From Patescibacteria group bacterium (GTDB lineage: Bacteria; Patescibacteriota; Minisyncoccia; Phycocordibacterales; DATDWN01), in NCBI GenBank assembly GCA_013816135.1, contig JACDEV010000001.1, forward strand, positions 28,994-92,993: 64,000 nt of DNA, given 5' to 3'. Below are positions 2,890 to 39,515 of this stretch, one piece after another. The notes below the pieces were generated by a model, which was not told the origin of the DNA, did not search any database, and saw nothing but the letters and a program-made list of their open reading frames with translations. The position numbers and the translations under genes were made by a program. Within the stretch, counting starts at the first letter, position 1. Each line of letters starts with the position of its first letter.

Positions 2890-3484
2890 AATCACTTTTC
2901 TCAAATAAGAATTGTAAATATGTTTTTGCTTTAACAGAAAGTTTCTCAAAATAGATTTCTTTGAAACCGCAATCACTTAAAATATCCTCTACTTCTTTCT
3001 TTTGAAAATAGGTAAATAATCTAGGAGAGTCTTCTCCCATACTTAGCCGAATCTCCTCTCCTTCACCCTCAATTAATCCTAGACCAAAAATTCCTTTATC
3101 CTTAAGTACTCTCTTAATCTCATTTATTGCTACTTTTATTTCGTTCTTATGAATATGCAAAAGAGAGGTATATGCCCACACCCCGTCAAAACTTTTATCT
3201 TCAAATGGAAGGCTTAAAAAATTGCCCACTACAGAATCAAACCCTCGAGATTTACTTATCTTAACCATAGACTCTGAAGCATCAAGACATATAACATCTA
3301 AGGCATTATCTGTAAAAATCTTTGCATCTCTTCCAGAACCGCTTCCAATATCCAGAACTTTCCCTTTTACTAATTTAGTAAATTCATTAGTAAAAGGCGA
3401 TGGGAACCTTTCCCAAAAATCGTCTGTTTCGAGAGTATATTCGTCAGCTTTATTATTATAAGTTTTTATTGTTGTTTCATCCAT
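2888..3484 (-). CDS. Class I SAM-dependent methyltransferase
   Basis: Motif I VLDIGSGSGRD and motif post-I D..ICLDASESM; 198 aa. Confidence 0.65.
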   Translation of the reverse strand: MDETTIKTYNNKADEYTLETDDFWERFPSPFTNEFTKLVKGKVLDIGSGSGRDAKIFTDNALDVICLDASESMVKISKSRGFDSVVGNFLSLPFEDKSFDGVWAYTSLLHIHKNEIKVAINEIKRVLKDKGIFGLGLIEGEGEEIRLSMGEDSPRLFTYFQKKEVEDILSDCGFKEIYFEKLSVKAKTYLQFLFEKSD

Positions 3485-6086: not shown

Positions 6087-6893
6087 TCAAATGTAAATTT
6101 TGGTTTGTTCCTCTAACCACATCCCTAAATTATTACAAACTTTTTTTATTATTTCTAAATCATCTGTCGGATTTAGCACAAGATACAAAGCTTCTTTCAT
6201 TTCTGGTTCTTTTTCCGGATAATACTCAGAGAAAATTTTATAACTCGGATATAAGTCTCTGGTATACAATCCCGCACGTTCCATTGTTAATTCAATACCA
6301 GTTCGGATAAATCTTTTCATTATCCATGCACAAGTATTTTTTATACTTTCACTCTCATGTGGCTTTAAAATCCACTCATCAATATATTTTAAATTTTTTC
6401 CTAAAGAATACACGTGACCCAATGTTTCTTTGCCAACTTTTATTTTTGACATTGATTTATTAAGGTCATCACCATACAAACAGGCACTTTGTAAAATATA
6501 AAGTCTATTTTTATCTGCATCCTCTATTGGATTAACTTCTAATTCAATATCTTGAACAAAAGGATATTTGACTTGAAGTTCTTTATCACATGAACTTATC
6601 CAATCTTTGTCTATTTCCCTTTTTTGCAAAGAAACATATGCAAACGTATCTACATCTGATATGCCTTGAACTGCATTTCCTTTCCCCACTGATCCTCTAA
6701 CATATACACTGTGTAACTTATCTTTGTATTGAACTTTGTATGCATTAACAATATCTTCTACAATAGGTTTCCATTCATCCTGGATTTTTTCTGGAGATGC
6801 AGGATTTGCGAGAAAGCCTTCTTTATCTTTTTCAAAGTATGACCCAATTTCTCGAATAGGTATTTCTTTATTATTCTCTAAATTTTCGGACAT
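6087..6893 (-). CDS. Pol-beta superfamily nucleotidyltransferase, ANT(6)/aminoglycoside-adenylyltransferase-like
   Basis: YVRGSVGKGNAVQGISDVDTFAYV has the GS...D.D nucleotidyltransferase motif. 268 aa, similar in size to AadK/ANT(6). Confidence 0.45.
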   Translation of the reverse strand: MSENLENNKEIPIREIGSYFEKDKEGFLANPASPEKIQDEWKPIVEDIVNAYKVQYKDKLHSVYVRGSVGKGNAVQGISDVDTFAYVSLQKREIDKDWISSCDKELQVKYPFVQDIELEVNPIEDADKNRLYILQSACLYGDDLNKSMSKIKVGKETLGHVYSLGKNLKYIDEWILKPHESESIKNTCAWIMKRFIRTGIELTMERAGLYTRDLYPSYKIFSEYYPEKEPEMKEALYLVLNPTDDLEIIKKVCNNLGMWLEEQTKIYI

Positions 6894-7982: not shown

Positions 7983-8085
7983 AATGATATTATATAAATT
8001 TATTACTTAGAATAAAGGGAATCTTTCCTTACAGGAACGGTACACCTTTTCTGTTTTACTTAGTAAAACTATCAAAGGTCTTCGA

Positions 8086-8146
8086 TTCCCTACGCAGAGT
8101 CTCCCAGACTCTGCTGTCTCCCAATAAAGCTTAAGCTTTATTTTTG
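8086..8146. repeat. Inverted partial copies of the tRNA-Gln 3' end plus nested palindromes
   Basis: The plus strand TTCGATTCCCT...GTCTCCCAG copies the tRNA T-loop/acceptor. CTGTCTCCCA (8114-8123) is the inverse of TGGGAGACAG (8148-8157). A perfect palindrome ATAAAGCTTAAGCTTTAT lies between them. Confidence 0.6.
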
Positions 8147-8217
8147 CTGGGAGACAGGGAATCGAACCCCGATTAAAGGCTTCAAAGGCCTCTGTCCTAC
8201 CGTTAGACGATCTCCCA
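8147..8217 (-). tRNA. tRNA-Gln (anticodon UUG)
   Basis: Cloverleaf on the minus strand: acceptor TGGGAGA/TCTCCCA, D-loop AACGGTA, anticodon loop CTTTGAA, T-loop TTCGATT. Confidence 0.85.
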
Positions 8218-26009: not shown

Positions 26010-26555
26010 TCAAGCTTTTAATTTGATCTCATTAATTTTATTCCATATTCCTATGTCTCCTATTTTTTTATAAAGATCCACAGAATAAACAATAAATGTA
26101 AACGTTTCAGCAACATTAGTGAGTTCATCCTTAATTTCAGTAAATAGTTTATCAGCTATACCAGCAGAAATAGTCATGTGAGGATTGAAATCTGATATAT
26201 TGTCATCATATTTAAGTAAAACACGACCTTTAAGAACAACAGAAGATGCTGAATTAATTTCTTTCAAGTAAATAATGGACTTAGAATTTGGTTTGAAATA
26301 AACTACATTACTATCATTTCTGTTTTCAAAATAACCAATCGAGTCTAGCGTAACTTCTTCCGATTTTAAACTAAATAATTCCTCAGATAGTTTTTTTATT
26401 ATGATGTCTAAATCCTCAGTATGAAATGGAGGGTAGATAGTTATATGTGGCTCGATTGAAGAAATAAGCTTTTTATATATTTTTCTATATTCATCTACTT
26501 TTCTAGACACTTCATTGGGTGGTGTGATAGCTAAGAGGTACGAAATTTTATCCAT
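26010..26555 (-). CDS. 2H phosphoesterase superfamily protein (LigT/2'-5' RNA ligase-like)
   Basis: Two H-x-T-x motifs (EPHITIYPPF and NPHMTISAG) at the spacing typical of LigT. Confidence 0.65.
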   Translation of the reverse strand: MDKISYLLAITPPNEVSRKVDEYRKIYKKLISSIEPHITIYPPFHTEDLDIIIKKLSEELFSLKSEEVTLDSIGYFENRNDSNVVYFKPNSKSIIYLKEINSASSVVLKGRVLLKYDDNISDFNPHMTISAGIADKLFTEIKDELTNVAETFTFIVYSVDLYKKIGDIGIWNKINEIKLKA

Positions 26556-26563
26556 AAATAAAT

Positions 26564-26700
26564 CATATCATGAAGCCGGAGGTGAGAATCTTTCCCTCGA
26601 CTCAAACTCTCGCCGTCGCTCATGTTTGGTCTGGGCACCAACTCGCGTTTTCGTTTTGCTAAACGAAAAATCGCTCCGTTGTTCAAGTCTCTCGCGCGAA
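26564..26700 (+). other. Degenerate tRNA-Leu(CAA)-like pseudo-tRNA with two insertions, convergent with the real tRNA-Leu(CAA)
   Basis: Plus strand GCCGGAG...CGACTCAAA[~37-nt insert]CGCGT[~22-nt hairpin insert TTTTCGTTT-AGCA-AAACGAAAA]CGCTCCGTTGTTCAAGTCTCTC mirrors the acceptor, anticodon arm and T-arm of the adjacent tRNA. The 3' acceptor is not matched. Confidence 0.5.
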
Positions 26701-26723
26701 ACATGTTTCGCTCTCTAGCACAA

Positions 26724-26745
26724 ACCAAAAACCGCTTTCGCGGTT
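26724..26745 (-). terminator. Terminator after tRNA-Leu(CAA) (AAACCGC-GAAA-GCGGTTT + T5 on the minus strand)
   Basis: 7-bp stem and T5 immediately 3' of the tRNA. Confidence 0.6.
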
Positions 26746-26752
26746 TGTTTTG

Positions 26753-26834
26753 TGCCGGAGGAGAGACTTGAACTCTCAACCCTTGCGAGACGCGATTTTG
26801 AGTCGCGCGCGTATACCAATTCCGCCACTCCGGC
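26753..26834 (-). tRNA. tRNA-Leu (anticodon CAA)
   Basis: Acceptor GCCGGAG/CTCCGGC, anticodon loop CTCAAAA, long variable arm, T-loop TTCAAGT. Confidence 0.9.
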
Positions 26835-26898
26835 ATAAACAAAAGAATACCTTATATAAACAAAAAATCAAACATAAATTTTATAATCTTATCCGTAT

Positions 26899-26935
26899 AA
26901 TAGAGAAAGGTCGGCACGGATGCCGACCTTTTTTT
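26899..26935. terminator. Terminator hairpin (AAAGGTCGGC-ACGGAT-GCCGACCTTT + T7)
   Basis: 10-bp perfect stem with T7 on the plus strand, between tRNA-Leu and the 3' end of 26938..27459. Confidence 0.6.
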
Positions 26936-26937
26936 AT

Positions 26938-27459
26938 TTACTTTGAATTCTTCTTTCTTGCACGTTTTCTTTTTTTCCACGCCTTATTGCGTACTGTGGC
27001 GGGGAGAAGTTTCGTTTCTCTAAACAACAACTTCCTGACAGTAAGAGCCTCGTGGATATGGGTATTGCTAACTTTAATACCCATAAGCATTACTGGATCT
27101 CCCACTCGACTTAGACGGCTTTGATAAAGAACGTACTTTTCATCCTCCTCGATGATTTCGATTTCATACCCCAATGCAACAATCAAGGGAAAATGCGCTA
27201 CACACAATCGCTTCGCCAAGTCCACATATCTGCTTGGAGACATCGTACGAACGAAACTCTCCGCAGCAATCCACACGGTGGCGCTTTGAGACTTCTGACC
27301 TCGACTGTAAGCTTTCCAAATACCGTTAAGTACTTGAATGAGAATCTTACGTCTAATCAGTTCTTCGGGTTGAAGCCGTAGTACTTCCCACTTTTTTATC
27401 TTTTTGAGAATCCCTTGTCTATCTTTCTTGGTCTTGATATCGAGCACAACACGTGACAT
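26938..27459 (-). CDS. Hypothetical protein with a Lys/Arg-rich C-terminal tail; tRNA-adjacent and GC-richer than flanks
   Basis: 173-aa ORF ending KAWKKRKRARKKNSK; no family recognised. Confidence 0.35.
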   Translation of the reverse strand: MSRVVLDIKTKKDRQGILKKIKKWEVLRLQPEELIRRKILIQVLNGIWKAYSRGQKSQSATVWIAAESFVRTMSPSRYVDLAKRLCVAHFPLIVALGYEIEIIEEDEKYVLYQSRLSRVGDPVMLMGIKVSNTHIHEALTVRKLLFRETKLLPATVRNKAWKKRKRARKKNSK

Positions 27460-27519
27460 CTTTGCCTCCTCATAGCAATTGCTCTATAACTGAATCCGTC
27501 GTATAGTCTGACAGACTTT

Positions 27520-28428
27520 ATGAAAAATACAAGACTCCAAATTAAACCTAAGATATTGGTGATTTTAGGTCCAACTGCTTCTGGGAAAAGCGCACTCGCT
27601 GTAAATATTGCTAAAAAATATAATGGCGAGATTATTTCTGCTGATTCTAGACAAGTGTATATTGGTCTGGATATTGGAACAGGTAAAATAACAAAGAAAG
27701 AAATGATGGCTATTCCCCACTACATGCTCGACGTTGTCTCTCCAAAAAAAGTTTTTTCAGTTTCTGATTGGAAAAAACAAACAGAAAGAATCATTAAAGA
27801 TATCCTTGCTAGAGGGAAACTACCTATTATATGTGGTGGAACTGGTTTTTATATTCAGTCTATTGTAGAGGGTATTATTCTTCCAGAAGTTTCAGCAAAC
27901 AAGAAACTAAGAAAAACACTAGAGAGAGAAAGTTTATCTGAACTTTTAAATACACTGATCAGACTGGATCCAAAAAAAGCAAAAGAAATAGATACAAAAA
28001 ATCCTGTAAGACTTATTCGTGCAATCGAGATTGCTACAGCTCTTGGCTCGGTTCCAAAGATTAAAAAAAATGAAGCCTATGATGTATTACAAATTGGTTT
28101 GAAGATTGAAGACAATGATCTCAAAAGAAGAATAAATAAAAGAATAACTTCTAGACTAAAATCCGGAATGATACAAGAAGTAAAATCTCTTCATAAACAA
28201 GGACTTTCTTGGAAGAGAATGAATGAACTAGGTCTTGAATACAAACTGCTCGCTACATACATTCAGGAAAAAACTACAAAAAAAGAATTGATAAAAAACT
28301 TAAACAATGAAATTTGGCACTATGCCAAAAGACAAATGACCTGGTTCAAGAGAGATAAGAATATAAAGTGGTACTCACCAATAAGCAAAAAAATAAATTC
28401 GGAAATTAAGGATTTTTTAAGTGTCTAA
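27520..28428 (+). CDS. miaA: tRNA dimethylallyltransferase
   Basis: P-loop ILGPTASGKSALAVNIAKK...IISADSRQVY.GLDIGT.K. Confidence 0.85.
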   Translation: MKNTRLQIKPKILVILGPTASGKSALAVNIAKKYNGEIISADSRQVYIGLDIGTGKITKKEMMAIPHYMLDVVSPKKVFSVSDWKKQTERIIKDILARGKLPIICGGTGFYIQSIVEGIILPEVSANKKLRKTLERESLSELLNTLIRLDPKKAKEIDTKNPVRLIRAIEIATALGSVPKIKKNEAYDVLQIGLKIEDNDLKRRINKRITSRLKSGMIQEVKSLHKQGLSWKRMNELGLEYKLLATYIQEKTTKKELIKNLNNEIWHYAKRQMTWFKRDKNIKWYSPISKKINSEIKDFLSV

Positions 28429-28475
28429 AAATTACAATTCAAATTAAATAAATATTGTGTTATTATGTTGCCCAC

Positions 28476-28546
28476 GGGGGATTAGTTAAGTGGTATAACA
28501 GCGCTCTCCAAAAGCACTGTCGGGAGTTCGATTCTTCCATCCCCCG
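28476..28546 (+). tRNA. tRNA-Trp (anticodon CCA)
   Basis: Acceptor GGGGGAT/ATCCCCC, D-loop AGTGGTA, anticodon loop CTCCAAA, T-loop TTCGATT. One C·A mismatch in the anticodon stem. Confidence 0.75.
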
Positions 28547-28604
28547 CAAAAATTACGGAGTAATTTTTTTCTGGGGGATGAGCAGAGCATGGGTATGCTC
28601 TGCG

Positions 28605-28745
28605 TGAAGAATCGAAGCCCGATTGAGATATTTTGTGAGCAATGCGATACAAAATATCCAATTGGGATACTGCTCCTGTAAGGAGAGATTCTTCTATGGA
28701 GACGGCGAGTTTTGAGTCGCGGAAGATTCTTCCATTTTTTGTTAT
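28605..28745. repeat. Patchwork of tRNA-derived fragments: partial tRNA-Tyr 3'-half copy, tRNA-Leu anticodon-arm-like segment and an 11-nt repeat of the tRNA-Trp 3' region
   Basis: 28629-28639 TCGAAGCCCGA equals the tRNA-Tyr variable/T region at 31184-31194. 28706-28717 TTTTGAGTCGCG equals the antisense tRNA-Leu(CAA) anticodon arm. 28727-28737 GATTCTTCCAT equals 28531-28541. A 9-bp hairpin GCAGAGCAT-GGGT-ATGCTCTGC also sits here. Confidence 0.5.
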
Positions 28746-28756
28746 AATTATGTTAT

Positions 28757-29389
28757 ATGAAAATTACTAAACTTGGACACTGTTGTTTATTAGTAGAAAC
28801 TAAAGGAAAAAGAATCCTTACTGATCCAGGTAGTTATACTGTTGAAGCTCATTCTAAATTAGAAAATATTGATTTCATTCTTTTTACGCACGAGCATCAA
28901 GATCATTATCACGTTGATTCTCTAAAATTGATCATTCAAAATAATCCCCATGCAGTTGTTTTTTCTAACAGTTCAGTTAGTGAACTTCTAACTCAAGAAG
29001 GGATTCCACACACTAAAATAAGTCATGATGAAAGTTTTGATCTAGGAGGTATTCCAGTACTAGGTTTGGGAGAAAAGCACGCACAAATGCATAGTTCTAT
29101 TCCAGTTTCTTCAAACCTAGGTTTTTATATAGATAAGAAACTTTGGTATCCGGGGGATGCATTTACAGATCCAGAGAGATCTGTAGAAGTATTAGCTCTT
29201 CCTGTATCTGGACCATGGATGAAAATTGGAGAAGCAATTGATTATGCACTTTTGATTCAACCAAAGAAAGCATTCCCTGTTCATGATGGTACACGATTTG
29301 GTTCTGCGCATGTTCTTCCCGGCAAAGTTCTTCCTCAACATGGAATAGAATTCGTTGTCATGGTTGAAGGTGATACTAAAGAATTTTAA
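28757..29389 (+). CDS. MBL-fold metallo-hydrolase
   Basis: THEHQDHYH has the HxHxDH motif; 210 aa. Confidence 0.65.
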   Translation: MKITKLGHCCLLVETKGKRILTDPGSYTVEAHSKLENIDFILFTHEHQDHYHVDSLKLIIQNNPHAVVFSNSSVSELLTQEGIPHTKISHDESFDLGGIPVLGLGEKHAQMHSSIPVSSNLGFYIDKKLWYPGDAFTDPERSVEVLALPVSGPWMKIGEAIDYALLIQPKKAFPVHDGTRFGSAHVLPGKVLPQHGIEFVVMVEGDTKEF

Positions 29390-29674
29390 TAACAAAAAAG
29401 CGCTCTAGAGCGCTTTTTTGTTATTTCTTAGACTCTTTGAAACTAACTCGTTTTCTGAGTTTCTTGCTGTATTTCATAAGGTCGATTTTTCGCTCAACTT
29501 TCTTCTTATTCTTTGAAGTCCAGCGTACCTCCCCTGTTTCCTTATTTCTTAGTATGATCAATCGGTCTTGTGACATATGCGTTATTTAAGTAGATAGAGC
29601 ATACCTAAATACGGGTAAAATTGCAAATCGAATGAAAAACGAAAGGCACCCGATGTTCTGGGTGCCTTATAATT

Positions 29675-30316
29675 TTAGAGACTATCTTCAGGTCCAATGA
29701 TAGGAAGGCGATGACTCATCCGAAGCCATCGGGCAAACGTGATCCATGAACCATCGATTGAAACGTAGCTTTCCCTTTTAATTGAGAATCGGGCCAGGCT
29801 GTACCCACTTTCATCCTTAATCCCCAGTCCTTCGAATACTCCCCGAGCAATCTCGATTGCTGTATCACAGAATTGTTCTCTATGAGCAAGAACAAAGAAC
29901 AATTTGAAGGTTGTGTCCGTCCATCTTTTTGTAGCTGGGAATTCGATGTGGACTCCAAACTCATTTGGCTTTTTTGAATTTCCAGAAGGATTGTTTAATC
30001 TTGCTTCAAGAAATTTCACAATTGCTTCTGAATTTGGAGGAATGTTCGGCCCACGTTGCCGTCGAATATCGAGAACTATTTCACCCTTGCGCTGGTCATG
30101 CTCTCCGTCTCTTGGTTGAGAGATAGCTTCCATTCTAAACAAGCCATGAACTTTTTCTTGAGCCTGGTAATCAATGACTTTTGAGTCAACCAAACCAAGA
30201 TCCAAATTCCCATCCATAGACAAGCTAGTTGGAAGACCCATGCCGTAGCAATCCCAAGTTAAAGTAACTTTGTCCCAAATCTTCATCTGACTCTCCTTGT
30301 CGCTCATTATACCCAC
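29675..30316 (-). CDS. Hypothetical protein, GC-richer than flanks, probable mobile-element cargo
   Basis: 213-aa ORF divergent from the recombinase remnant; no family recognised. Confidence 0.35.
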   Translation of the reverse strand: MGIMSDKESQMKIWDKVTLTWDCYGMGLPTSLSMDGNLDLGLVDSKVIDYQAQEKVHGLFRMEAISQPRDGEHDQRKGEIVLDIRRQRGPNIPPNSEAIVKFLEARLNNPSGNSKKPNEFGVHIEFPATKRWTDTTFKLFFVLAHREQFCDTAIEIARGVFEGLGIKDESGYSLARFSIKRESYVSIDGSWITFARWLRMSHRLPIIGPEDSL

Positions 30317-30346
30317 ATGGGCGTCCAGTATTAGACTGGATCATTT

Positions 30347-31150
30347 AGGAGCGATCTAAGGTCAATATTATTTAAAATAGGTAAAAAAGGAAGACCTAGA
30401 GCTCAAAAACACATATTTCCTTTTACTGGAATAATGACTTGTGGTGAGTGTGGAGCAAGAGTTACAGCTTCAGAAAAAAAGAAGTTGAATAAAACCAGTG
30501 GGAAAATAGAAACTTACGTTTACTATCATTGTACAAAAAGAAAGAAGTATATAGATTGCAAAGCACAACCAGTTACTGTATCTAAGCTTGAAGATGACAT
30601 TGTAAAAACAATAGAAACAAATCTGATTGATCCAGAGTTTTATAAACTAGGTTTAGAGACTTGGAAAGAAGTGCACGAACTGGAAACAGACCAAAGACAG
30701 AAAATATACGAGGCACAATTCAAAAATGTAGAAGAAACAGAAAAGAAATTGGATCGAGCACTTACATTTCTTTTTGATGGAACAGTTACAAAAGAACAAT
30801 ACAACATCCAAAAACAAGAATTAGAAAAATTACTAACAAGAGAAAAAGACAAACTCGCACAAACAGAAAAAAGAGCTACGAACTGGAGAGAACTTACTGA
30901 AAATGTTTTACACTTCTCTGCTTTAGCTGTAGAAGCGCTTAAACATGGAGATGTTCAGGTCCGGAGAGAGACACTGAGTAGTCTAGGTTGGAACCACAGG
31001 ATAGAATCTAAAAAACTGTTTATAAACCTACATTCTTGGTTTACTGTTCTTAAAAAAGGTGAGGAAGAGCTTTTACCAGAAATAAAAGCGTTGGAACTGG
31101 AAAAAATCGTTGATAAGCAAAGACGGATGGAAGCTTTTGCCACCATCCGT
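30347..31150 (+). pseudogene. Large serine recombinase, 5'-truncated remnant (recombinase + Zn-ribbon + coiled-coil part only; resolvase catalytic domain missing)
   Basis: The frame is open from the stop at 30344: ...KKGRPRAQKHIFPFTGIMTCGECGARVTA...YYHCTKRKK...C... is the typical Zn-ribbon_recom motif, followed by a long coiled coil. The annotated ORF (30434..31306) runs on antisense through tRNA-Tyr, which looks spurious. Confidence 0.6.
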
Positions 31151-31159
31151 CCTAGGTTG

Positions 31160-31242
31160 TGCGTCGGGAAGGATTCGAACCTTCGAAGCCCGAAGGCGCC
31201 AGATTTACAGTCTAGTGCGATTGACCACTCCGCCACCGACGC
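31160..31242 (-). tRNA. tRNA-Tyr (anticodon GUA)
   Basis: Acceptor GCGTCGG/CCGACGC, anticodon loop CTGTAAA, long variable arm CGCCTTCGGGCTTC, T-loop TTCGAAT. Confidence 0.85.
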
Positions 31243-31402
31243 ATTCTCGATACTCATTATTCCCTCATCTGCTTTGTTGCTGATTGTGCCCGCTTCCGCA
31301 GAGTAGTTTTCTACACTTTGGTCGCGGTACTCATCAGCGCCTCGCATCTGTGGGAATTCTGTGCTCGAGAAATACTTTAACACATTTTATTTAATTGAGA
31401 AA

Positions 31403-34075
31403 CTATACTAAAGTTTTTTCGTGAACAAAGCTGTCTGAGACGAAGGAGCCATTCCTCCCTTTTTTAACAGTAAAATCAAATTCTCCATTTTTTATATCAA
31501 CAGTTATTGAACCCCCTTTAGACAAACCTTTACTTACCATAAGCGAAGCAATAGAAGTTAGTATTTTAGTTTGGATTAAACGCTTTAGAGGCCTCGCTCC
31601 GTACTGAGGGCTATAACCTTCCTTACTTAAATGTTCAAAGACTGCATCAGACAAAATTAATTTGATTTCTTTTTGAGCCAAGCGATCTTTCACGATACCT
31701 ACCTGTATCTTTACAATTTCCTTGATTGCTTCCCTGCTCAAAATATCGAAGACAATTATGTCATCTAAACGATTTAGAAATTCTGGCCTAAAATGATCTC
31801 GTAAAGCATCGAGAACTTTGGACTTAGCATCCTCATATCCGGCTTTTTCATTCCCAGAAGCAAAACCTATTTTTTCCATTTTATCTATATAGCGAGCACC
31901 GATGTTTGAAGTAAGGATGATGACAGTATTTCTGAAATTTACCAACCTGCCTTTTGCATCAGTTAATCTTCCATTATCCAGAACCTGAAGAAGAATGTTG
32001 AAAACTTCTGGGTGTGCTTTTTCAATTTCATCAAACAATATAACTGAATATGGTCGATGTCTGACCATCTCAGTAATAGTTCCACCTTCTTCGTGTCCAA
32101 CATAACCTGGAGGAGCACCAATTATCTTTGATACGCTGTGCTTTTCCATAAATTCAGACATATCTATCCTAATGAGAGATTTATCATCATCAAATAAGAA
32201 TTCTGCCAAAGCTTTGGTCAGTTCTGTTTTACCGACACCTGTTGGTCCAAGAAATAGAAATGAACCGATCGGACGGTTAGGGTCAGCAATACCAGCTCGT
32301 GAACGTTTGATAGTATCTGAAATCTTTTTCACAGCATCTACCTGGCCTACTATTCTTTTTCGGAGAACTTCTTCCATTCTGTTTAACTTTTCTGCTTCTT
32401 CTTCTAGCATTCTGGAAACAGGAACCCCTGTCCATTTGGATACGACTGTAGCGATATCGTTTTCAGTTATTTCTTCATTTAATATCCTTCGTGAACTCTG
32501 AAGTTTTTTTAATCTTTTTGCTTTGTTATCTAAATCTTTTTCGTAAGCAGGAATTTTGCCATATCGAATCTCTGCTGCTTTTGCTAATTCAGCCTTCGCT
32601 TCTGCTGTCTCTGCTTCCCGTCTCAACTCTTCTAACCTCTTTTTAATACCCTTAATATCGTTTACTGTTTCTTTTTCATTATTCCACTTAATCTCAATTT
32701 CTGAGGTTTGTTCTTTAAGATCTGCAATATTCTTGTCAATTTCCTTCAATCTGGTTTTAGATTTAGGATCTGTTTCCTTTTTAAATGCTTCATGCTCTAT
32801 TTGGAGCTTTACAATCTTTGAATGAGCACTCTGAAGAACTGGAGGTTTATTTTCTAGAGCAATCTTCAAAAACGAAGCTGACTCATCTATCAGGTCTACT
32901 GCCTTATCAGGTAAAAATCTATCAGTGATATAACGACTAGAAAGATTGACTGCAGAAATAATTGCCTCATCAGTTATTCTGACACCATGATATAACTCAT
33001 ATTTTTCTTTCAAACCACGTAAAATAGTAACTGCATCATCTACGCTTGGCTCATTTACATAAACTGGCTGAAATCTTCTTGAAAGTGCTGGATCTTTTTC
33101 GATATGCTTTTGATACTCTTTCAAAGTAGTAGCACCAATTGCCCTAAGTTCACCTCTAGCTAAAGCTGGTTTAAGCATATTGGAAGCATCAAGTGATCCT
33201 TCTGCTGAGCCTGCTCCGACAATAGTATGTATCTCATCGACGAACAAAATAACTTTGCCGTCTGATCTTTCAATTTCCTTTAAGATATTTTTTAGTCTCT
33301 CTTCGAATTCTCCTCGGTACTTTGTTCCCGCAACCAAAAGTCCTAGATCAAGGGATACTAGTTCTTTATCTTTTAATGATTCAGGCACATCTCCCATCGA
33401 CATTCGAATAGCTAAACCTTCAACGATTGCGGTTTTTCCCACGCCAGCTTCCCCAATAAGCATCGGATTATTTTTTGTCCGCCTTGAAAGAATCTGAATT
33501 ATTCTAGAAATTTCATCATCGCGACCAATAACGGGGTCAAGTTTATTTTGCTGAGCGAGCTTTGTGAGGCTTCTAGTAAATTTTCCTAAAGCTTTGAATT
33601 TCTTCGGTGCATCAGGCTCAACTGTTTTTGTACTTCTAATATCCTCGATGACTCGCAGTACTGCATCTTTATCTATTTTAAATTTTGAAAGTAGGTCTTT
33701 GGCAGGACTTGGGATTTCCATAAGAGCCATGAACAAATGTTCAGTAGATACGAACTCATCATTTAAATGTGAAAGTTCTTTACCTGAAGCTTCAATTGTC
33801 TGAGCTAATTCAGGAGTGAGATAGATTTGATAAGATGCAGATAAAGTTTGTCCAGCTTCAGTGCCTTCAATAGCTTCCAAAAGTGAATCTGTCAGTAATA
33901 TAGTATCAACTTCCAATCTGTCTAAAATTGATGTGACGATGCTTTCTTCCTGCAAAATAAGAGCTGTGAGTAAATGAAGTGGGTTTACATGATTCTGTCC
34001 GCGTTCAATAGCGAGCTCATGAGCTCGGCGGATGGCTTCTTTTGCTTTTGTTGTAAAGTGACTGAATGGAGGCAT
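31403..34075 (-). CDS. clpB: ATP-dependent chaperone ClpB
   Basis: Clp N domain, two AAA+ modules ([15 protein letters not shown]; [17 protein letters not shown]) and a long middle coiled-coil; 890 aa. Confidence 0.9.
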
Positions 34076-34214
34076 GTTTTGTATTTATACAATGTAATTT
34101 ATAATTTTATTACGATTTCATCACGAATATAGACAATCCGGAAGAACAATATGCTTAATATATGTGAATTTTACTCTATATTTCACAAAAGTCAACATGA
34201 ATTTTAATATTAAT

Positions 34215-35054
34215 TTAATTCAAGAGAATGCTAATCTCTTTTTTCAAAATAGCTGAGAAAGTAAAGGCTTTTAGACCTTCTCCTGTGGTTTTAATACCTA
34301 CAACATTTCCCGATAAGTCGAATAATGGACTGCCATGAATAAGATCCTTGCTTGGAAGATCTGTATCAATTGATGACAAATATTCTACAGTTGTACTACC
34401 AATTCCAGATTCTTTCATATCTAAAGAAACTATTCTACCTACAGAAACTGAATTTGTGACTAAACCTCCTAGACCAATAATAGTTTGACCTAATTTTGGT
34501 GGAATCTCAGTAATCACCGCTGGAACAAAAACGTAAGGCCCTTTAGGAGATTTTTCTTGACCAGCTCTAAACAAAATAAAAGTAGTTGATTTATTTTCAC
34601 CTACTGGTGTAAGTGGTAATTCAGTTCCATCATTTGTAATTCCAATATATCCGTTTCCCGTAGTGTCGCCATTCCTATCTGCTGCAATTATTCCTTCTTT
34701 AGTTACCACCAACCCAATTCCATATGTCCTAGTTGTGAAATTTCCACCATCTTTTTCTTTTATTCTTACTATGCTGTTAATATTTTTCTTTATGGAATCT
34801 AAAATAAGATCCTCCTCCTTCAACACTACTGTTGTTGTGACTTTGTTATTACTTGTAGTCACAGTAGTAGTAGGTGTAGCAGGAGTAACTGTCTCGATAG
34901 TCTTTTCTACAATCCTATTAATATTTCTTGTCACTTCAAGTGGAGCTTCCTGTAAAAGAGAAACTGTAATGATTCCTGTAGCAATTGAAGTAACAAAGCT
35001 AATAAGCAAAACTAGAAGGACTAGTTGATTTTTATTTAAGTCTTCCATAGGCAC
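34215..35054 (-). CDS. Membrane-anchored trypsin-like (S1/HtrA-like) serine protease without PDZ
   Basis: N-terminal TM helix. HGSPLFDLSGNVVGI is the Ser-region motif, with GSP in place of the canonical GDSGG. Confidence 0.45.
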   Translation of the reverse strand: MPMEDLNKNQLVLLVLLISFVTSIATGIITVSLLQEAPLEVTRNINRIVEKTIETVTPATPTTTVTTSNNKVTTTVVLKEEDLILDSIKKNINSIVRIKEKDGGNFTTRTYGIGLVVTKEGIIAADRNGDTTGNGYIGITNDGTELPLTPVGENKSTTFILFRAGQEKSPKGPYVFVPAVITEIPPKLGQTIIGLGGLVTNSVSVGRIVSLDMKESGIGSTTVEYLSSIDTDLPSKDLIHGSPLFDLSGNVVGIKTTGEGLKAFTFSAILKKEISILLN

Positions 35055-35067
35055 ATATTAACATAAT

Positions 35068-36264
35068 TTATTTTATTATTTTTGAGAGTGCTTCAACTAA
35101 TGCGTCAACATCAGATTTATTGGAATACTTTCCGAATGTAAATCTCAGGCTAGAGTTGGCACAATTAGGTTTACCTAAAGCATTAACAACATACGAGGAT
35201 GAATCTTCTTTCAAAGTCCGACATGAGGATGAATAAGAAGCAGAAATTCCGCAAACATCCAGAGAAATAACAGCAAACTCAGAATCAATACTAGGAAAAC
35301 ATATATTTATATTGTTCGGTAATCTAAATTCTCTGGAACCATTAATTTTAGCTTTTGGAAATTTTTTTAATAATACATCTATTCCGTAATCTCGTATTGA
35401 AGTTAGTCTTTGGCTTTCTCCTAATCTATCATTATTTGCCAAACTTAATGCTTCTGCTAAACCAACGATAGCTTGTAGATTTTCCGTTCCGCTTCTAATT
35501 CCCTTCTCTTGTCCTCCTCCAAACAAAATAGGAAATATATTTGTTTCTGTTTTTGCATATAACAATCCAGAGCTTCGCGGACCATACATCTTTATTCCAT
35601 CCAACGTTAAAAGATCAACACGAAGTTTCAAGACATCGATATCCAAGTAAACTGCAGCCTGACAGGCATCTGTATGAAAGTATGGTAATTCTGTATTTTT
35701 GTTTCGTTTGTATTCTTTAATTAATTTTCCAATTTGGTTTATTGGTTGGATAGTTCCAATCTCATTATTAGCATACATTACACTAACCAGAACCGTGTTA
35801 TCTTTTATCGCTTTTATAATATCTTTCTCAGAAACAATTCCTTCTTCGGAAACTGGCACATAGGTTACTTCTCCTCCACGTCTCTCTATCTCTTTGCATA
35901 TCTCCAGAATAGCGGGATGCTCAATTACGGTTGTTACTATATGAGGAATAAAATCATCTCTCTTGCAAGCTTCGAAGACTCCAAGTAAAGCGAGGTTGTT
36001 ACCTTCAGTCCCTCCACTTGTAAAAATAATTTCGCTTTTTTGGCAATTCAAAATATTAGCAATCTTTTCTCTTGCCTCTTTGATTTTTTCTTTCACAACC
36101 AATGCTTCACTATAAAGCGCTGATGGATTTGCAAAATTTCCACCACTTGTGGATTCCTTCATAACTTTAAGTACCTGCTCATCTATCGGAGTAGTGGAAG
36201 CATAATCCAAAAAAATTCGTTTGTTTGGAGTTTTGTTTATTTTAAATGGGTTCGGAAAATTCAT
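35068..36264 (-). CDS. Cysteine desulfurase (class V aminotransferase, IscS/NifS-like)
   Basis: PLP-fold motifs FTSGGTEGNNLAL and HTDACQA; C-terminal active-site region SSSCRT. 398 aa. Confidence 0.75.
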   Translation of the reverse strand: MNFPNPFKINKTPNKRIFLDYASTTPIDEQVLKVMKESTSGGNFANPSALYSEALVVKEKIKEAREKIANILNCQKSEIIFTSGGTEGNNLALLGVFEACKRDDFIPHIVTTVIEHPAILEICKEIERRGGEVTYVPVSEEGIVSEKDIIKAIKDNTVLVSVMYANNEIGTIQPINQIGKLIKEYKRNKNTELPYFHTDACQAAVYLDIDVLKLRVDLLTLDGIKMYGPRSSGLLYAKTETNIFPILFGGGQEKGIRSGTENLQAIVGLAEALSLANNDRLGESQRLTSIRDYGIDVLLKKFPKAKINGSREFRLPNNINICFPSIDSEFAVISLDVCGISASYSSSCRTLKEDSSSYVVNALGKPNCANSSLRFTFGKYSNKSDVDALVEALSKIIK

Positions 36265-36320
36265 ATCTGTATCATACTAATTATTTTGCAAAAAACAATA
36301 AAATATGCCATAATATCGAA

Positions 36321-36788
36321 ATGATTTTTGATCCTATCTATATTTCATATGCACTTATTGGTGTTATGTTGATATTGGTAGGATGGATAATTAGGCTTGA
36401 AATAAAAATTTCTCATCTTTTAATTGGTAAGGATTCAAAGTCCTTAGAAGACTCAATTGTCTCTGCAGGGGAAAATCTAAAGAAATTAAACGATTTCCAA
36501 AGAGAAGCCATCATGCATTTCATGAACGTCGAAAAACGACTGAATCGCAGTATCCAAGCAGTTGAAACTATCCGCTTTAACCCTTTCAAAGGAACGGGTG
36601 AAGGCGGAAGCCAAAGCTTCTCAACTTCTTTTCTTTCAGAGGATGGTAATGGAGTTGTTATATCCAGTATTTATTCCAGAGAACGTGTAAGCGTCTTTTC
36701 AAAACCATTAAATAAATTTGAAAGTAAATTTGAACTGACTGAAGAAGAAAAAGAAGTTATTGTAAACTCAAAAAAAACTCTAGACTAA
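36321..36788 (+). CDS. Membrane protein, DUF4446-like hypothetical
   Basis: TM helix ISYALIGVMLILVGWII followed by RFNPFKGTGEGGSQSF. The start was moved to the internal Met to avoid overlapping the desulfurase start. Confidence 0.35.
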   Translation: MIFDPIYISYALIGVMLILVGWIIRLEIKISHLLIGKDSKSLEDSIVSAGENLKKLNDFQREAIMHFMNVEKRLNRSIQAVETIRFNPFKGTGEGGSQSFSTSFLSEDGNGVVISSIYSRERVSVFSKPLNKFESKFELTEEEKEVIVNSKKTLD

Positions 36789-36815
36789 ACGTCATGGACT
36801 TAAAAATTCACAATC

Positions 36816-38321
36816 ATGGAAACAACAAATACCAACATGAAAGAAAGATCTCCTATTGTGGCCATAATGGGACATATAGACCATGGAAAATCTACTCTAC
36901 TTTCTTATATAAGACACAGCACTGAACCTCTTAATGAAGCAGGAGGTATCACTCAACATATTTCAGCATATGAAGTTGAACATTTTGCTACTGATGGTAA
37001 AAAACATACGTTAACTTTCATAGATACTCCGGGACACGAAGCTTTTAGTGGAATAAGAAAACGAGGAGCAAAAGTGGCGGATGTAGCTATTTTGGTAGTT
37101 TCTGCAGAAGATGGAGTTAAACCACAAACTATTGAAGCACTCCATTCTATTACTGAAAGCAAGACTCCTTATATTGTCGCTATAAATAAGATAGATAAGC
37201 CTGGTATAGATATTGAAAGAACAAAGCAAAGCTTAGCTGAAAATCAGATATATGTGGAAGGTTATGGAGGCGATGTACCATTAGTTCTGATATCTGCAAA
37301 AACAGGTCAAGGAATTCCAGAACTTTTCGATATGATTATATTAGTCTCACAACTGGAATCACTTCAAGGAGACTCTAGTATTTCTGCAAACGGAATAGTT
37401 ATAGAGAGTAATCGAGATGTAAAAAAAGGAATATCTGCAACATGCATAATCAAAAATGGAACTCTCACCAAAAGCATGTATATTACTTCAGGTTTATCAT
37501 CTGCCCCAATAAGAATAATGGAAAATTATTTAGGTAAACAAATTGAAAATGCTACATTTTCTAGCCCTATAAAAATAATTGGTTGGGATAGTCTGCCAGA
37601 AGTTGGAAATGAGTTTAAATCTTTTAAATCCAGAGATGAAGCTAGAGAACAAATTGAAAAAGAAAAAGAGCTGAGAAGTTCAAATAAAGGAGAGAAGGAA
37701 TCCATTGTAGACACGACCAACTCAATACCTGTCATTCTTAAAGCAGATACAGGAAGTAGTTTGGAAGCGATGATCTCAGAAATAAAGAAATTGACCACAG
37801 AAAGGATAAGTGCAAAGGTTATTTCGTCAGGTATAGGAACTATTTCTGAAAATGATGTCAGACTGGCCGATGGTAATGAAAAAGCAATAATAATTGGATT
37901 CAATGTGAAAGTTGACTCTCCTGCAAAAAACTTAGCAGACAGAAACGAGATTGAAATTCAGAAATTCGACATAATTTACAAAATGAATGAGTGGTTGAAG
38001 GAAGTGCTAGCAACACGTACACCAAAAATGAAAGTTGAAGAATCAACAGGCTTAGCTAAAATATTGAAGCTATTTAGTAAAGTAAAAGATAAGCAGATAA
38101 TAGGTGGTCGAGTAGAAAAAGGTAGTATCGTAGTAGGATCCTTGGTAAAGATATCCAGACGTGATGTAGAGATTGGAGAAGGCAGGATTCGAGAACTCCA
38201 ACAGCAGAAATCTGCTTGTACTGAAGTTAAAGAAGGTAAAGAATTTGGAGGACTTATAGTTGCAAATATTGAAATTGCTGCGGGTGATAAAATCGAGAGC
38301 TTTATAACTATCGAAAAATAA
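36816..38321 (+). CDS. infB: Translation initiation factor IF-2 (short form lacking the N-terminal extension)
   Basis: G domain IVAIMGHIDHGKSTLL, DTPGHEAF, NKID; C-terminal beta-barrel domains; 501 aa. Confidence 0.85.
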   Translation: METTNTNMKERSPIVAIMGHIDHGKSTLLSYIRHSTEPLNEAGGITQHISAYEVEHFATDGKKHTLTFIDTPGHEAFSGIRKRGAKVADVAILVVSAEDGVKPQTIEALHSITESKTPYIVAINKIDKPGIDIERTKQSLAENQIYVEGYGGDVPLVLISAKTGQGIPELFDMIILVSQLESLQGDSSISANGIVIESNRDVKKGISATCIIKNGTLTKSMYITSGLSSAPIRIMENYLGKQIENATFSSPIKIIGWDSLPEVGNEFKSFKSRDEAREQIEKEKELRSSNKGEKESIVDTTNSIPVILKADTGSSLEAMISEIKKLTTERISAKVISSGIGTISENDVRLADGNEKAIIIGFNVKVDSPAKNLADRNEIEIQKFDIIYKMNEWLKEVLATRTPKMKVEESTGLAKILKLFSKVKDKQIIGGRVEKGSIVVGSLVKISRRDVEIGEGRIRELQQQKSACTEVKEGKEFGGLIVANIEIAAGDKIESFITIEK

Positions 38322-38322
38322 T

Positions 38323-38646
38323 ATGAGCAATCGTAATGAAAAAATAGAAGAAATACTTCACGATTTAGGAGCTCGTTTCTTACTCTTAAATGGAAACACC
38401 TCATCACTTTTGACTGTTACGCGAGTAGAGTTAACAAGGGATGGAAAACGTGCTACTATTTTCTTTACGGTATTTCCCGAGACTTTTGAGAAAACCGCTC
38501 TAGAATTTGCTAAACGCAAAAGGAGCGAATTCAAGGAATTTGTTAAGGATAATTCAAAATTAGGCAGAATACCTCAGCTTGATTTTGAAATAGATACTGG
38601 AGAAAAGAATCGTCAGAAAATTGACTCTCTTCTAAACGAAAGCTAA
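38323..38646 (+). CDS. rbfA: Ribosome-binding factor A
   Basis: LLTVTRVELTRDGKRATIFFTV KH-like RbfA signature; it immediately follows infB, as is usual for this operon. Confidence 0.8.
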   Translation: MSNRNEKIEEILHDLGARFLLLNGNTSSLLTVTRVELTRDGKRATIFFTVFPETFEKTALEFAKRKRSEFKEFVKDNSKLGRIPQLDFEIDTGEKNRQKIDSLLNES

Positions 38647-38653
38647 TATTCAG

Positions 38654-38728
38654 GGCCTGGTCGCCAAGTGGTAAGGCAAAGATCTGCAAAATCTTTATAC
38701 GGCGGTTCGATTCCGCCTCAGGCCTCCA
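38654..38728 (+). tRNA. tRNA-Cys (anticodon GCA), CCA encoded
   Basis: Acceptor GGCCTGG/TCAGGCC, anticodon stem-loop AAGAT-CTGCAAA-ATCTT, T-loop TTCGATT. Confidence 0.8.
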
Positions 38729-38745
38729 GGAAAAAAGTGTACTTT

Positions 38746-38829
38746 GCCCGGGTGGCGGAATTGGTATACGCGTTCGACTTAAAATCGAATCTCGAAAGAG
38801 GTATGGGTTCGACTCCCATCCTGGGCACA
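38746..38829 (+). tRNA. tRNA-Leu (anticodon UAA)
   Basis: Acceptor GCCCGGG/CCTGGGC, anticodon loop CTTAAAA, long variable arm, T-loop TTCGACT. Confidence 0.9.
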
Positions 38830-38881
38830 GAAAAACTGTTTTAAATAGTTTTTCGTTTGCTAGAGTTTTAGAAATATATTT

Positions 38882-38956
38882 GCACCCATAACTCAGCTGG
38901 TAGAGTAGCTCCCTCTTAAGGAGAATGTCGTTGGTTCGACTCCAACTGGGTGCACA
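38882..38956 (+). tRNA. tRNA-Lys (anticodon CUU)
   Basis: Acceptor GCACCCA/TGGGTGC, D-loop AGCTGGTA, anticodon loop CTCTTAA, T-loop TTCGACT. Confidence 0.8.
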
Positions 38957-39115
38957 AGTCAAAAAATTCTAAACTGCTTTAGAATTTTTCGGACTTGTGC
39001 AAGCCGGAAGTATGTTTGCGAGTACGCAAACAACTGAGGCGGGGTCGAGGAAATTTCAATTCGACGGAATTGAAATTATCCTTGACCACAAGTGCACGCT
39101 AATGTATTTACATTT

Positions 39116-39199
39116 GGGCAAGTGGCGGAATTGGTATACGCGCTAGTCTTAGGAACTAGTTCCTCACGGATTGGGAGTTCGAGTCTCCCCTTGCCCACA
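39116..39199 (+). tRNA. tRNA-Leu (anticodon UAG)
   Basis: Acceptor GGGCAAG/CTTGCCC, anticodon loop CTTAGGA, long variable arm, T-loop TTCGAGT. Confidence 0.9.
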
Positions 39200-39236
39200 A
39201 TTAAAAAACACCTTTACCGGTGTTTTTTAATTGTGG
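39190..39236. repeat. 23-bp perfect inverted repeat that includes the last 10 nt of tRNA-Leu(UAG) and a terminator core
   Basis: CTTGCCCACAATTAAAAAACACC-TTTACC-GGTGTTTTTTAATTGTGGGCAAG. Confidence 0.7.
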
Positions 39237-39254
39237 GCAAGAGCAAAGCGATGC

Positions 39255-39345
39255 TTTGCGCGGGAGACTCGAACAACGGAGCGACTCTTGTTTTAGCAAA
39301 AACAAGACGCGAGTTGGTGTCCAGACCATAATTTTCTGACGAGAA
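39255..39345 (-). other. Second degenerate tRNA-Leu(CAA)-like element (homolog of 26564..26700), convergent with tRNA-Leu(UAG)
   Basis: Plus strand GCGCGGGAGACTCGAACAACGGAGCGA[CTCTTGTTTT-AGCA-AAAACAAGA]CGCGAGTTGGTGTCCAGACCA[CATAATTTTC-TGACGAG-GAAAATTATG]AGTCGCGG. It is ~80% identical to the reverse complement of 26590-26700, with compensatory changes in the inner hairpin. Confidence 0.5.
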
Positions 39346-39360
39346 AATTATGAGTCGCGG

Positions 39361-39467
39361 ACGAGTCTCATTCAATATCCAAACACGGGTACTGATCCTG
39401 TAAGGATCGAGTCTCCCTCTGAGTTCATGAAAAGTGAGAGTTGTGACCGAGTCTCCCTTTTCCCACC
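39361..39467 (+). repeat. Direct partial copies of the tRNA-Leu(UAG) T-arm/3' end (att-site-like scars)
   Basis: Copies of TCGAGTCTCCC(C)TT.CCCAC at 39405-39425 and 39447-39467, and a truncated copy at 39361-39373. The real tRNA 3' end is at 39180-39199. Confidence 0.55.
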
Positions 39468-39515
39468 TGTTGACACTCTATTTTTACAGTTGTATTATCG
39501 AGCACAGAGGTACAG

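Follow-up and report, generated by a model that had tools for sequence, protein, structure and literature searches.

We have found that two related elements in a 64-kb stretch of DNA from a Patescibacteria group bacterium (contig JACDEV010000001.1; the whole stretch is referred to here as the window), one behind each of two tRNA-Leu genes and termed copy A and copy B, belong to a previously undescribed family of ~130-170 nucleotides (nt) that is absent from Rfam and is a variant, in the Candidate Phyla Radiation (CPR), of the design of the E. coli tRNA-linked repeats (TLRs). A core of ~90 nt, a three-way junction whose structure is kept by covariation, lies between two arms that are DNA-level copies of the 3' end of the neighbouring gene. 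On balance, and judging from sequence, we favour the view that A and B represent a Patescibacteria family of structured trailer RNAs that are linked to tRNA and transfer-messenger RNA (tmRNA) genes, have a TLR-like layout and would be excised by way of a tRNA-like helix. Coordinates are positions in the window unless they follow an L-number; L-numbers (L002 and the like) are labels of the other loci compared.

Two copies of one folded element

A preliminary description had put the likeness of the two stretches at about 80%, and our alignment of copy A (26570-26695) with copy B (39260-39385), over ~190 columns, gives 81% mean column identity. Exact blocks of 22 and 27 nt are present twice, and only twice, in the window and in 0 of 100 shuffles, and A and B share one fold: a closing helix (P1), a long hairpin with a CCGTCG/CGTC tip (P2), a short CAAC/GTTG helix that in A as in B carries a 9-bp hairpin (P3), and a small hairpin downstream (P4). 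Compensatory substitutions had been pointed out in the inner hairpin, and we do find three double, pair-preserving changes there (TTTTCGTTT/AAACGAAAA in A and TCTTGTTTT/AAAACAAGA in B). Taken together, the exact blocks, the common fold and the pair-preserving substitutions argue that the likeness of A and B is real and not due to chance. P4 also shows compensating changes between the two copies (GCGAAAC/GTTTCGC in A and GCAAAGC/GCTTTGC in B), and most members of the family have a hairpin at this position. The predicted fold of copy B has a z score of -6.3 to -6.6, and a covariance model built for the family matches copy A at 26570-26695 with 119.2 bits and copy B at 39260-39385 (minus strand) with 112 bits.

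ARAGORN calls eight tRNA genes in the window, and a tRNA-Leu gene lies ~60 nt from each of the two copies, its strand being opposite to the sense in which the elements were first described (the plus strand for copy A and the minus strand for copy B; referred to here as the original sense). The tRNA strand is the opposite one. Searches of Rfam with both strands, at the gathering threshold and at E<=10, returned no family that matches A or B. No open reading frame (ORF) is conserved between the two copies and, judged by eye, the ORFs that overlap them lie in different frames, so that protein coding was rejected.

A core kept by covariation

Whether further copies would diverge in a structure-preserving way had been left as a question by the preliminary description; they do, as is apparent from the covariance model and from an alignment of 47 copies. 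In this model-based alignment 87.3% of the cells of the structure hold standard pairs, compared with 63.8% in shuffles, and changes on both sides of a pair are found in 375 cells, compared with 113 in shuffles. When the partners are slid by 1-3 columns, pairing falls to 29-44%. RNAalifold, run on a MAFFT alignment, finds compensated changes at 19 of 24 pairs. Conservation is also seen at individual loci. Copy B and its counterpart in Saccharibacteria (L002) are 85% identical over the tRNA, the terminator and the element; nothing is alignable beyond the tRNAs and the element, and the element matches the tRNA in its degree of conservation. Two copies behind tRNA-Leu(CAG), L073 and L120, are set apart by four double-compensated pairs. 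Because of this covariation, the same-locus conservation and the compensated pairs, we consider that the core behaves like a functional folded nucleic acid and not like decaying debris.

We note that a conserved U.G 'pair' in P2 (A2 columns 34/61; A3 columns 36/143) seemed to favour the original sense, but a bulged base is the better interpretation, the C that follows being paired with that G. A variant of the core, found at L005 and L026, has an extra domain of ~80 nt between P2 and P3 that resembles the second core described below (family 2). Hammerhead and K-turn motifs were compared with the core by eye and neither fits. A riboswitch of known type or a T-box leader was also rejected, there being no Rfam match and the downstream genes being unrelated to one another.

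Arms copied from the neighbouring gene

The inverted arm (IR) is a reverse-complemented copy of the T loop and T-stem 3' strand of the partner gene, while the direct arm (DR) copies the partner's 3' end, starting near C56 of the T loop and taking in the 3' strands of the T stem and of the acceptor stem up to the discriminator; IR and DR pair with each other, and this pairing is P1. The DR is often exact over 19-27 nt, 27 being the limit of the comparison (L001, L005, L010, L017, L056, L057, L085, L088 and L111), and it often extends into the trailer or the terminator. At L111 the repeat is ~45 nt long, and at L005 a unit of 137 nt stands in tandem. In copies A and B the 13-nt block that had been described as a T arm reproduces exactly the T loop and T-stem 3' strand of each copy's own neighbour, and throughout the family the source of the arms is the adjacent tRNA or tmRNA, whatever its type, and not tRNA-Leu(CAA). 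The arms are copies made at the level of DNA. Where the partner has a G.U pair (L056, L038 and L005-Asp), the inverted arm complements the 3' strand by Watson-Crick pairing and does not follow the tRNA 5' strand; where the T loop is not palindromic, the inverted arm is a true inverted copy.

These same features led us to reject a 'mini-tRNA with a T-loop insertion': with the non-palindromic T loops TTCAAGT and TTCAAAT the left arm matches the right arm in reverse complement and is not the 5' part in tRNA sense, and where the tRNA has G.U pairs the arm is again complementary to the 3' strand. An IS200/IS605 element or a TnpB-guide-like element was rejected because the flanks are inverted copies of each other. 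A miniature inverted-repeat transposable element was rejected as well: the inverted arms vary by locus and track the neighbouring tRNA, and the conserved part is internal. In the copies at tRNA-Ser(GCU) genes (L011 2542-2665, L077 7350-7473 and L087 3931-4054) a 20-nt hairpin, CCTGCCTG CCGTC AGGCAGG, interrupts the direct arm, and its loop repeats the CCGTC of the P2 apex.

The strand that folds

Several asymmetries mark the tRNA strand as most likely the one that folds. In 35 of 38 copies the fold is more stable for the reverse complement of the original sense (mean difference -5.5 kcal/mol; Wilcoxon p = 4e-7). In well-formed helices, appositions of A with C outnumber those of G with U in the original sense by 9:1 in P3 and by 41:20 in P1; as an A.C apposition in that sense is a G.U pair on the other strand, this excess points to the tRNA strand. 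A recurrent CTCG...CTCG in the P2 apex gives a TC/TC mismatch in the original sense and tandem G.A on the tRNA strand. By-eye reading also finds a terminator-like hairpin and a T run after the DR on the tRNA strand, at L017, L068, L088, L111 and L112 among others. Given the strand asymmetry, the elements are most likely 3' trailers of tRNAs and not convergent genes. The arrangement tail-to-tail with tRNA-Leu that was first described holds insofar as the elements adjoin these genes and, in the original sense, lie on the opposite strand; in view of the asymmetry and of a copy in the spacer of a tRNA operon (see below), it most likely reflects a reading of the wrong strand.

Hosts and partner genes

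A one-genome-per-species scan with the 20-mer GGTCTGGNCACCAACTCGCG found three loci, all in the CPR (one in Wolfebacteria and two in Saccharibacteria), at which the core adjoins tRNA-Ser(GCU), tRNA-Leu(UAG) and tRNA-Glu(UUC). A looser pattern applied to metagenome contigs gave 117 loci, about two thirds of which (~70) were chance matches in GC-rich genes; these were removed with a hidden Markov model (HMM) and then with the covariance model R1, which left 47 copies in 38 sources. Wherever the flank suffices and the neighbour is recognisable, the neighbour is a tRNA or a tmRNA. In all 33 of the 33 copies with an ARAGORN tRNA on that side, the tRNA is 19-217 nt away and the element lies beyond its 3' end, an arrangement that is convergent in the original sense and, in the other sense, places the element on the same strand as the tRNA and downstream of it. 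tRNAs for 12 amino acids are represented among the partners (Ser, Leu, Glu, Asp, Thr, Asn, Ala, Phe, Trp, Gln, His and Tyr). The partner at L026 is a tmRNA (2293-2835, Rfam), with the element at 2896-3088; L033, L046 and L048 have the same arms and flank as L026, the arms being built from the tmRNA T loop (GCTTCAATGC...).

We note that L018 (~1180-1230) and L065 (~6420-6470) share a stretch, TAGTGGAGGA..T.AGAACTGT, beyond the terminator. ARAGORN makes no call on it and Rfam gives no match at the gathering threshold (for L065 also at E<=0.1); it may be an unusual tRNA-like gene. At L122 (~270-530) a tRNA-Glu has no element, and the small ORF after it is, by eye, GIY-YIG-like.

All-against-all clustering of the ORFs beside the elements found no shared protein family. 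The downstream genes are mutually unrelated, several of them being housekeeping genes, and, judged by eye, include PheS-, RNase J-, RuvX- and ABC-transporter-like genes. Two pattern scans of IMG/VR gave 0 matches in one case and, in the other, 73 loci of which none was confirmed by the family HMM, and BLAST against INPHARED returned nothing; a phage or attP origin was rejected, no copy having been found in either collection.

Other copies in the window and a second core

The features of the window are collected in Table 1. On the tRNA strand the usual order is tRNA, palindromic terminator-like hairpin, a strand resembling the 5' strand of the acceptor stem, P4, IR, core and DR; the acceptor-5'-like strand is present, by eye, in about two thirds of copies.

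Table 1. Partner genes, elements and associated features of the window (IR, inverted arm; DR, direct arm; CM, covariance model)
Feature	Position	Strand	Basis or detail
Family-2 chassis behind tRNA-Gln (8146-8217)	8015-8145	-	nhmmer 8015-8102 (-), E = 2.4e-6
Copy A DR, decayed copy of tRNA-Leu(CAA) 3' end, CCTCCGGC exact; pairs with IR (P1)	26575-26593	-	
Copy A core, three-way junction: P2 (bulged base, apical CCGTCG loop), P3 (CAAC/GTTG, CGCG, 9-bp hairpin)	26594-26680	-	covariation
Copy A IR; plus strand reads GTTCAAGTCTCTC = tRNA-Leu(CAA) T loop and T-stem 3' strand	26681-26693	-	exact 12-13 nt match to 26761-26772
Copy A P4 hairpin (26696-26711) and degenerate acceptor-like strand (~26711-26719)	26696-26719	-	sequence
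T1, palindromic bidirectional terminator-like hairpin in the tRNA-Leu(CAA)/copy A interval	26718-26755	.	terminator-like on both strands at 26729-26746
tRNA-Leu(CAA), partner of copy A	26752-26834	-	ARAGORN; Rfam tRNA 58.4 bits
Family-2 chassis behind tRNA-Trp (28476-28547)	28548-28735	+	nhmmer 28596-28704, E = 3.7e-31 (query-derived model)
Third, diverged family-1 copy, in the spacer between tRNA-Lys(CUU) (38882-38955) and tRNA-Leu(UAG)	38988-39110	+	CM match on - strand, 36.8 bits, E ~1e-10
tRNA-Leu(UAG), partner of copy B	39116-39198	+	ARAGORN, Rfam
Perfect palindrome: tRNA acceptor 3' strand, trailer, terminator-like hairpin, acceptor-5'-like GGGCAAG	39190-39241	.	sequence; long hairpin in folds
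Copy B	39243-39369	+	P4 39243-39259; IR GGGAGACTCGAAC 39262-39274; core 39275-39361; DR CGAGTCTC 39362-39369
Partial family-2 module (39373-39423) and two decayed DRs (39408-39427, 39448-39468)	39373-39468	+	nhmmer; sequence; pattern match 39406-39417

The preliminary description had missed the third member of the family, situated within a tRNA operon. This copy retains both the hairpin with the CCGTCG loop and that of P3, and its arms correspond to the acceptor end and trailer of tRNA-Lys (TGCACAAGTC), not to the T loop. In the spacer of L002 a core-like GACCCGGACTCGCGCC is seen by eye at the matching place, where the covariance model gave no report.

We find that the same chassis can carry a second core. 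On the tRNA strand this family-2 core reads GCCCGATTGAGATATTTT-hairpin-AAAATATCCAATTGGGRTACTG-hairpin, with a TGTAA loop. The tRNA-Trp locus consists of a terminator, an acceptor-5'-like CTGGGGGAT, P4, an IR (GAAGAATCGAA), the family-2 core and a DR (GATTCTTC), after which come a remnant of a family-1 P2 and a second DR; the family-1 covariance model matches weakly here, at 28603-28747. The tRNA-Gln locus has a terminator-like hairpin, GGGAGACAG, P4, an IR (AGGGAATCGAA), core 2 and a DR (GATTCCCT). Elsewhere family 2 occurs at L003 861-974, L028 10878-10987, L111 5296-5558, L015 2634-2732 and L088, in every case on the tRNA strand; the window and L003 copies have a conserved G.U pair on this strand. 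In all, five of the eight tRNA genes of the window carry a trailer element.

Behind each of the two tRNA-Leu genes the terminator-like hairpin is a long and perfect palindrome, and that of copy B includes the acceptor 3' strand of the tRNA. It is possible that a duplex of ~40 bp with the 3' half of the tRNA could form in read-through RNA and be a substrate for RNase III. The decayed direct copies of the tRNA-Leu(UAG) 3' end downstream of copy B read GAGTCTCCC..., and after them, just before the next ORF, is a near-consensus promoter-like TTGACA-17-TATTAT (39470-39498). On the tRNA strand copy A is followed by a gene of the 2'-5' RNA ligase/2H phosphoesterase family (LigT-like; 26010-26555, minus strand), whose start codon is 20 nt from the direct arm; homologues of this gene were compared for empty sites, and synteny was not conserved.

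Relation to known systems

The TLRs of E. coli, among them the rtT/RttR RNA of the tyrT operon, have been known since 1978. They lie downstream of tRNA and rRNA genes, and their 3'-terminal 18-19 bp repeat the 3' end of the upstream gene (PMC8144298). Those that have been studied, rrA, rrB and rrF (behind 5S rRNA), each have a terminator on either side and owe their transcription to read-through, the repeat being thought to act as a processing signal; the TLRs of tRNA operons have no known function (PMC8144298). In the tyrT-tyrV-rttR region (L196, NC_000913 1286300-1287800) we find that each TLR unit has GGGGAAGGAT, the reverse complement of the segment ATCCTTCCCC from the 3' portion of tRNA-Tyr, and that this inverted 10-nt copy stands ~100 nt upstream of each direct copy. 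The E. coli tyrT repeats thus also have the pair of arms, inverted, core and direct, that characterises the CPR family. Like the TLRs, which are 100-180 nt long, the CPR elements lie immediately behind a tRNA or tmRNA gene on what is most likely the same strand, combine a direct repeat of the gene's 3' end with an inverted copy, and can form tandem units. They share the layout alone, however, and have no similarity to the TLRs in sequence or by model: Rfam, which we take to include the rtT family, gave no match to the elements at E<=10, rtT included. Unlike the TLRs, the CPR family has a core that is a three-way junction, conserved across CPR phyla and with heavy covariation; it has two unrelated cores on one chassis; and its partners include tmRNA. 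Its inverted arm is longer than that of the TLRs and is usually interrupted by a hairpin at the junction of the acceptor stem and T stem. CPR tRNA genes mostly have no encoded CCA, and the CPR repeat therefore ends at the discriminator or in the trailer, which is not so for the TLRs.

The repeats made by integrases of the T-loop class, such as that of mycobacteriophage Ms6 at tRNA-Ala (PMC1762012), also run from the T loop to or beyond the 3' end, involve both tRNA and tmRNA targets, and accumulate as decayed copies. Unlike them, the CPR repeats have only ~150 nt between them, with no ORF and no integrase, and the elements have an extra inverted copy and a covarying single-strand fold, with none found in viral collections. 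Duplication of an integrase att site was rejected as an account of the elements: the direct repeat is present, yet the length is ~150 nt, no ORF is conserved and the neighbouring genes are unrelated.

In the attP(+) site of phage CTX and in attC sites, a stem formed by inverted copies imitates a duplex target and is conserved in structure more than in sequence; one strand is active, and long attC sites have branched tips. The CPR elements have a stem that would mimic a target, but theirs varies with the neighbour while the tip sequence is conserved, and no recombinase or cassette is associated with them. A last comparison is with mascRNA (from MALAT1), the tRNA punctuation of organelles and the tRNA-like domain of tmRNA, in that a helix resembling the acceptor and T stems could recruit RNase P or RNase Z, and so free an adjoining RNA, in the CPR family too. 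Those modules have a T loop and an elbow and are of fixed sequence, whereas the CPR elements have the core in place of the T loop and a helix that copies the adjacent tRNA.

How the elements might act

If the elements are trailer RNAs, their RNA would be transcribed together with the tRNA by read-through, and pairing of IR with DR would rebuild a helix that resembles the acceptor and T stems. Such a helix would in turn allow RNase P, RNase Z and RNase E to release a defined RNA of ~130-170 nt, the level of which would follow transcription of the tRNA. The core, with its purine-rich internal loops, bulged A and fixed hairpin loops, would then be the working part, and on this model it probably binds a protein or a small ligand. 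The terminator-like hairpins that precede the element, and in L017, L068, L088, L111 and L112 also follow it, are compatible with read-through and processing.

Several points weigh against this proposal. Expression would depend on read-through, since a terminator-like hairpin intervenes in A and B and leaves no room for a promoter. Processing alone leaves unexplained why the arms copy the neighbour and do not form a generic helix. The DRs of the window copies are exact for 8-11 nt only and the remainder has decayed, and copies that stand in tandem, are nested or are truncated (L003, L005, L028 and the tRNA-Trp locus) resemble spreading repeats. At L018 and L065 no partner gene is recognised. 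Lastly, the assignment of the strand rests on asymmetry in thermodynamics and mismatches, and single-stranded DNA of the same strand would give the same result.

Alternative explanations

We regard as unlikely the possibility that the family represents miniature mobile elements, non-autonomous and propagated in the form of a folded single strand, either of DNA or of RNA by way of cDNA. The 3'-end stem would mimic the duplex segment from the T loop to the 3' end, and a host tyrosine recombinase would join stem and gene in a manner like that of CTX attP(+) or attC. By our own derivation, hairpin integration of the CTX type would give the order X, terminator loop, reverse complement of X, core, X. 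The repeats do run from the T loop to beyond the 3' end, as do T-loop-class integrase sites (Ms6, PMC1762012), and tmRNA genes are also partners. The tandem identical units of L005 (137-nt period), the nested and truncated copies, the two cores on one chassis, and the several decayed direct copies behind tRNA-Leu(UAG) are also what mobility would suggest. Nevertheless, no recombinase or conserved protein gene lies nearby, searches of IMG/VR and INPHARED brought no copy to light, and a cargo of ~100 nt would have no obvious route of replication. Copies within a genome have diverged (81% for A and B; also L028) and are not near-identical, and copies at the same tRNA in different genomes change in a compensatory fashion in place, which inert insertions would not.

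We assign a lower likelihood still to a three-segment RNA switch, in which the IR would pair either with the 3' half of the tRNA, thereby unfolding the tRNA and inviting RNase III, or with the DR, and in which the core would sense a ligand or protein and so set the yield of mature tRNA or tmRNA from read-through precursors. Such a switch would explain why both arms track the neighbouring sequence, and one core behind many tRNAs would give coordinated control. Moreover, minimum-free-energy folds of read-through transcripts pair the tRNA 3' half with the IR by way of the terminator palindrome (A, B and the Trp locus), and aptamers are usually laid out in this way, with a helix that closes a three-way junction in which conserved bases stay unpaired. 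The tRNA, however, is transcribed and able to fold before the IR exists; transcripts that end at the first hairpin would escape control; there is no ligand, Rfam riboswitch match or precedent; and the outer DR has decayed in several old copies, including window copy B and L073/L120.

It is very improbable that the elements are neutral debris, that is, fragments of pseudo-tRNAs or scars of inverted duplication or old integration at tRNA-Leu that have no present role. The preliminary description had offered neutral scars as one possibility, and part of this survives: the arms did originate as DNA-level copies, with repeats that extend into trailer and terminator sequence, decayed 3'-end fragments do accumulate behind tRNA-Leu(UAG), and the DR arms of the window copies are eroded. 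What does not survive is the lack of maintenance. Copy B and L002 are alike to the degree given above and their cores are as conserved as the tRNA while the flanks are unalignable and saturated, copies at the same tRNA differ by compensated pairs, covariation is strong, A and B differ by three compensated pairs in the P3 hairpin alone, and the core is conserved across CPR lineages (Wolfebacteria and Saccharibacteria).

The elements had also been described as degenerate copies of tRNA-Leu(CAA) with two insertions, and this proved to be mistaken. A search with ARAGORN calls no tRNA at 26564-26700 or 39255-39385, and at these sites the Rfam tRNA model gives no match, even with a threshold of E<=10. 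What had been read as the acceptor of copy A is the 3' end of the neighbour in reverse complement. CGACTCA and CGCGT, which had been taken for parts of tRNA-Leu(CAA), are conserved core positions that also occur beside Ser, Glu, Ala, Asp, Thr and other tRNAs: CGACTC pairs with GGTC (CGAC with GTC(G)) at the base of P2, where GAC/GTC, GCC/GGC and ACC/GGT covary, and CGCG is part of P3. The two 'insertions' are the conserved core itself. In the original sense the 'T-arm' strand pairs with the 5' arm (P1), and the 5' strand of a T stem is not present. Closest to what we find is the earlier suggestion of a conserved tRNA-derived structured RNA family; the family is indeed large and covarying, but only its closing arms derive from tRNA. 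An unusual or intron-containing tRNA-like gene on the strand opposite the real tRNA is scarcely credible, for although copy A has short matches to tRNA-Leu(CAA) (GCCGGAG, CGACTCAAA, CGCGT and GTTCAAGTCTCTC), no cloverleaf, anticodon arm or T-stem 5' strand is present, neither ARAGORN nor Rfam makes a tRNA call, the supposed tRNA motifs belong to P1, P2 and P3 and recur behind Ser, Glu, Ala and other tRNAs, and the opposite strand folds better.

Implications

Less likely in our view than the trailer RNA reading, but of interest, is that these elements are programmable mimics of tRNA 3' ends, in which the sequence of the adjacent tRNA or tmRNA would spell out a helix that clamps a conserved core acting as sensor or effector. 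Were this so, it might take one of two forms. In the first, the inverted arm would compete with the 3' half of the tRNA, and the core would set the maturation of tRNAs and tmRNA genome-wide in a riboswitch-like manner. In the second, the hairpin would be a single-strand element, protein-free, that propagates itself by insertion behind new tRNA genes. With either form there would be a first mechanistic handle on the tRNA-linked repeats of E. coli.

As five of the eight tRNA genes in the window carry one, such trailers would be a substantial and unannotated part of tRNA loci in reduced genomes, and we note that the elements can pass for pseudo-tRNAs, att scars or convergent small RNA genes. The layout is shared with a very distant bacterial group, recurs behind many types of tRNA and behind tmRNA, encloses a covarying core and accommodates a second core, and for these reasons we consider that the layout itself is selected. 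The CPR family thus provides a tractable model for the layout of tRNA-linked repeats.

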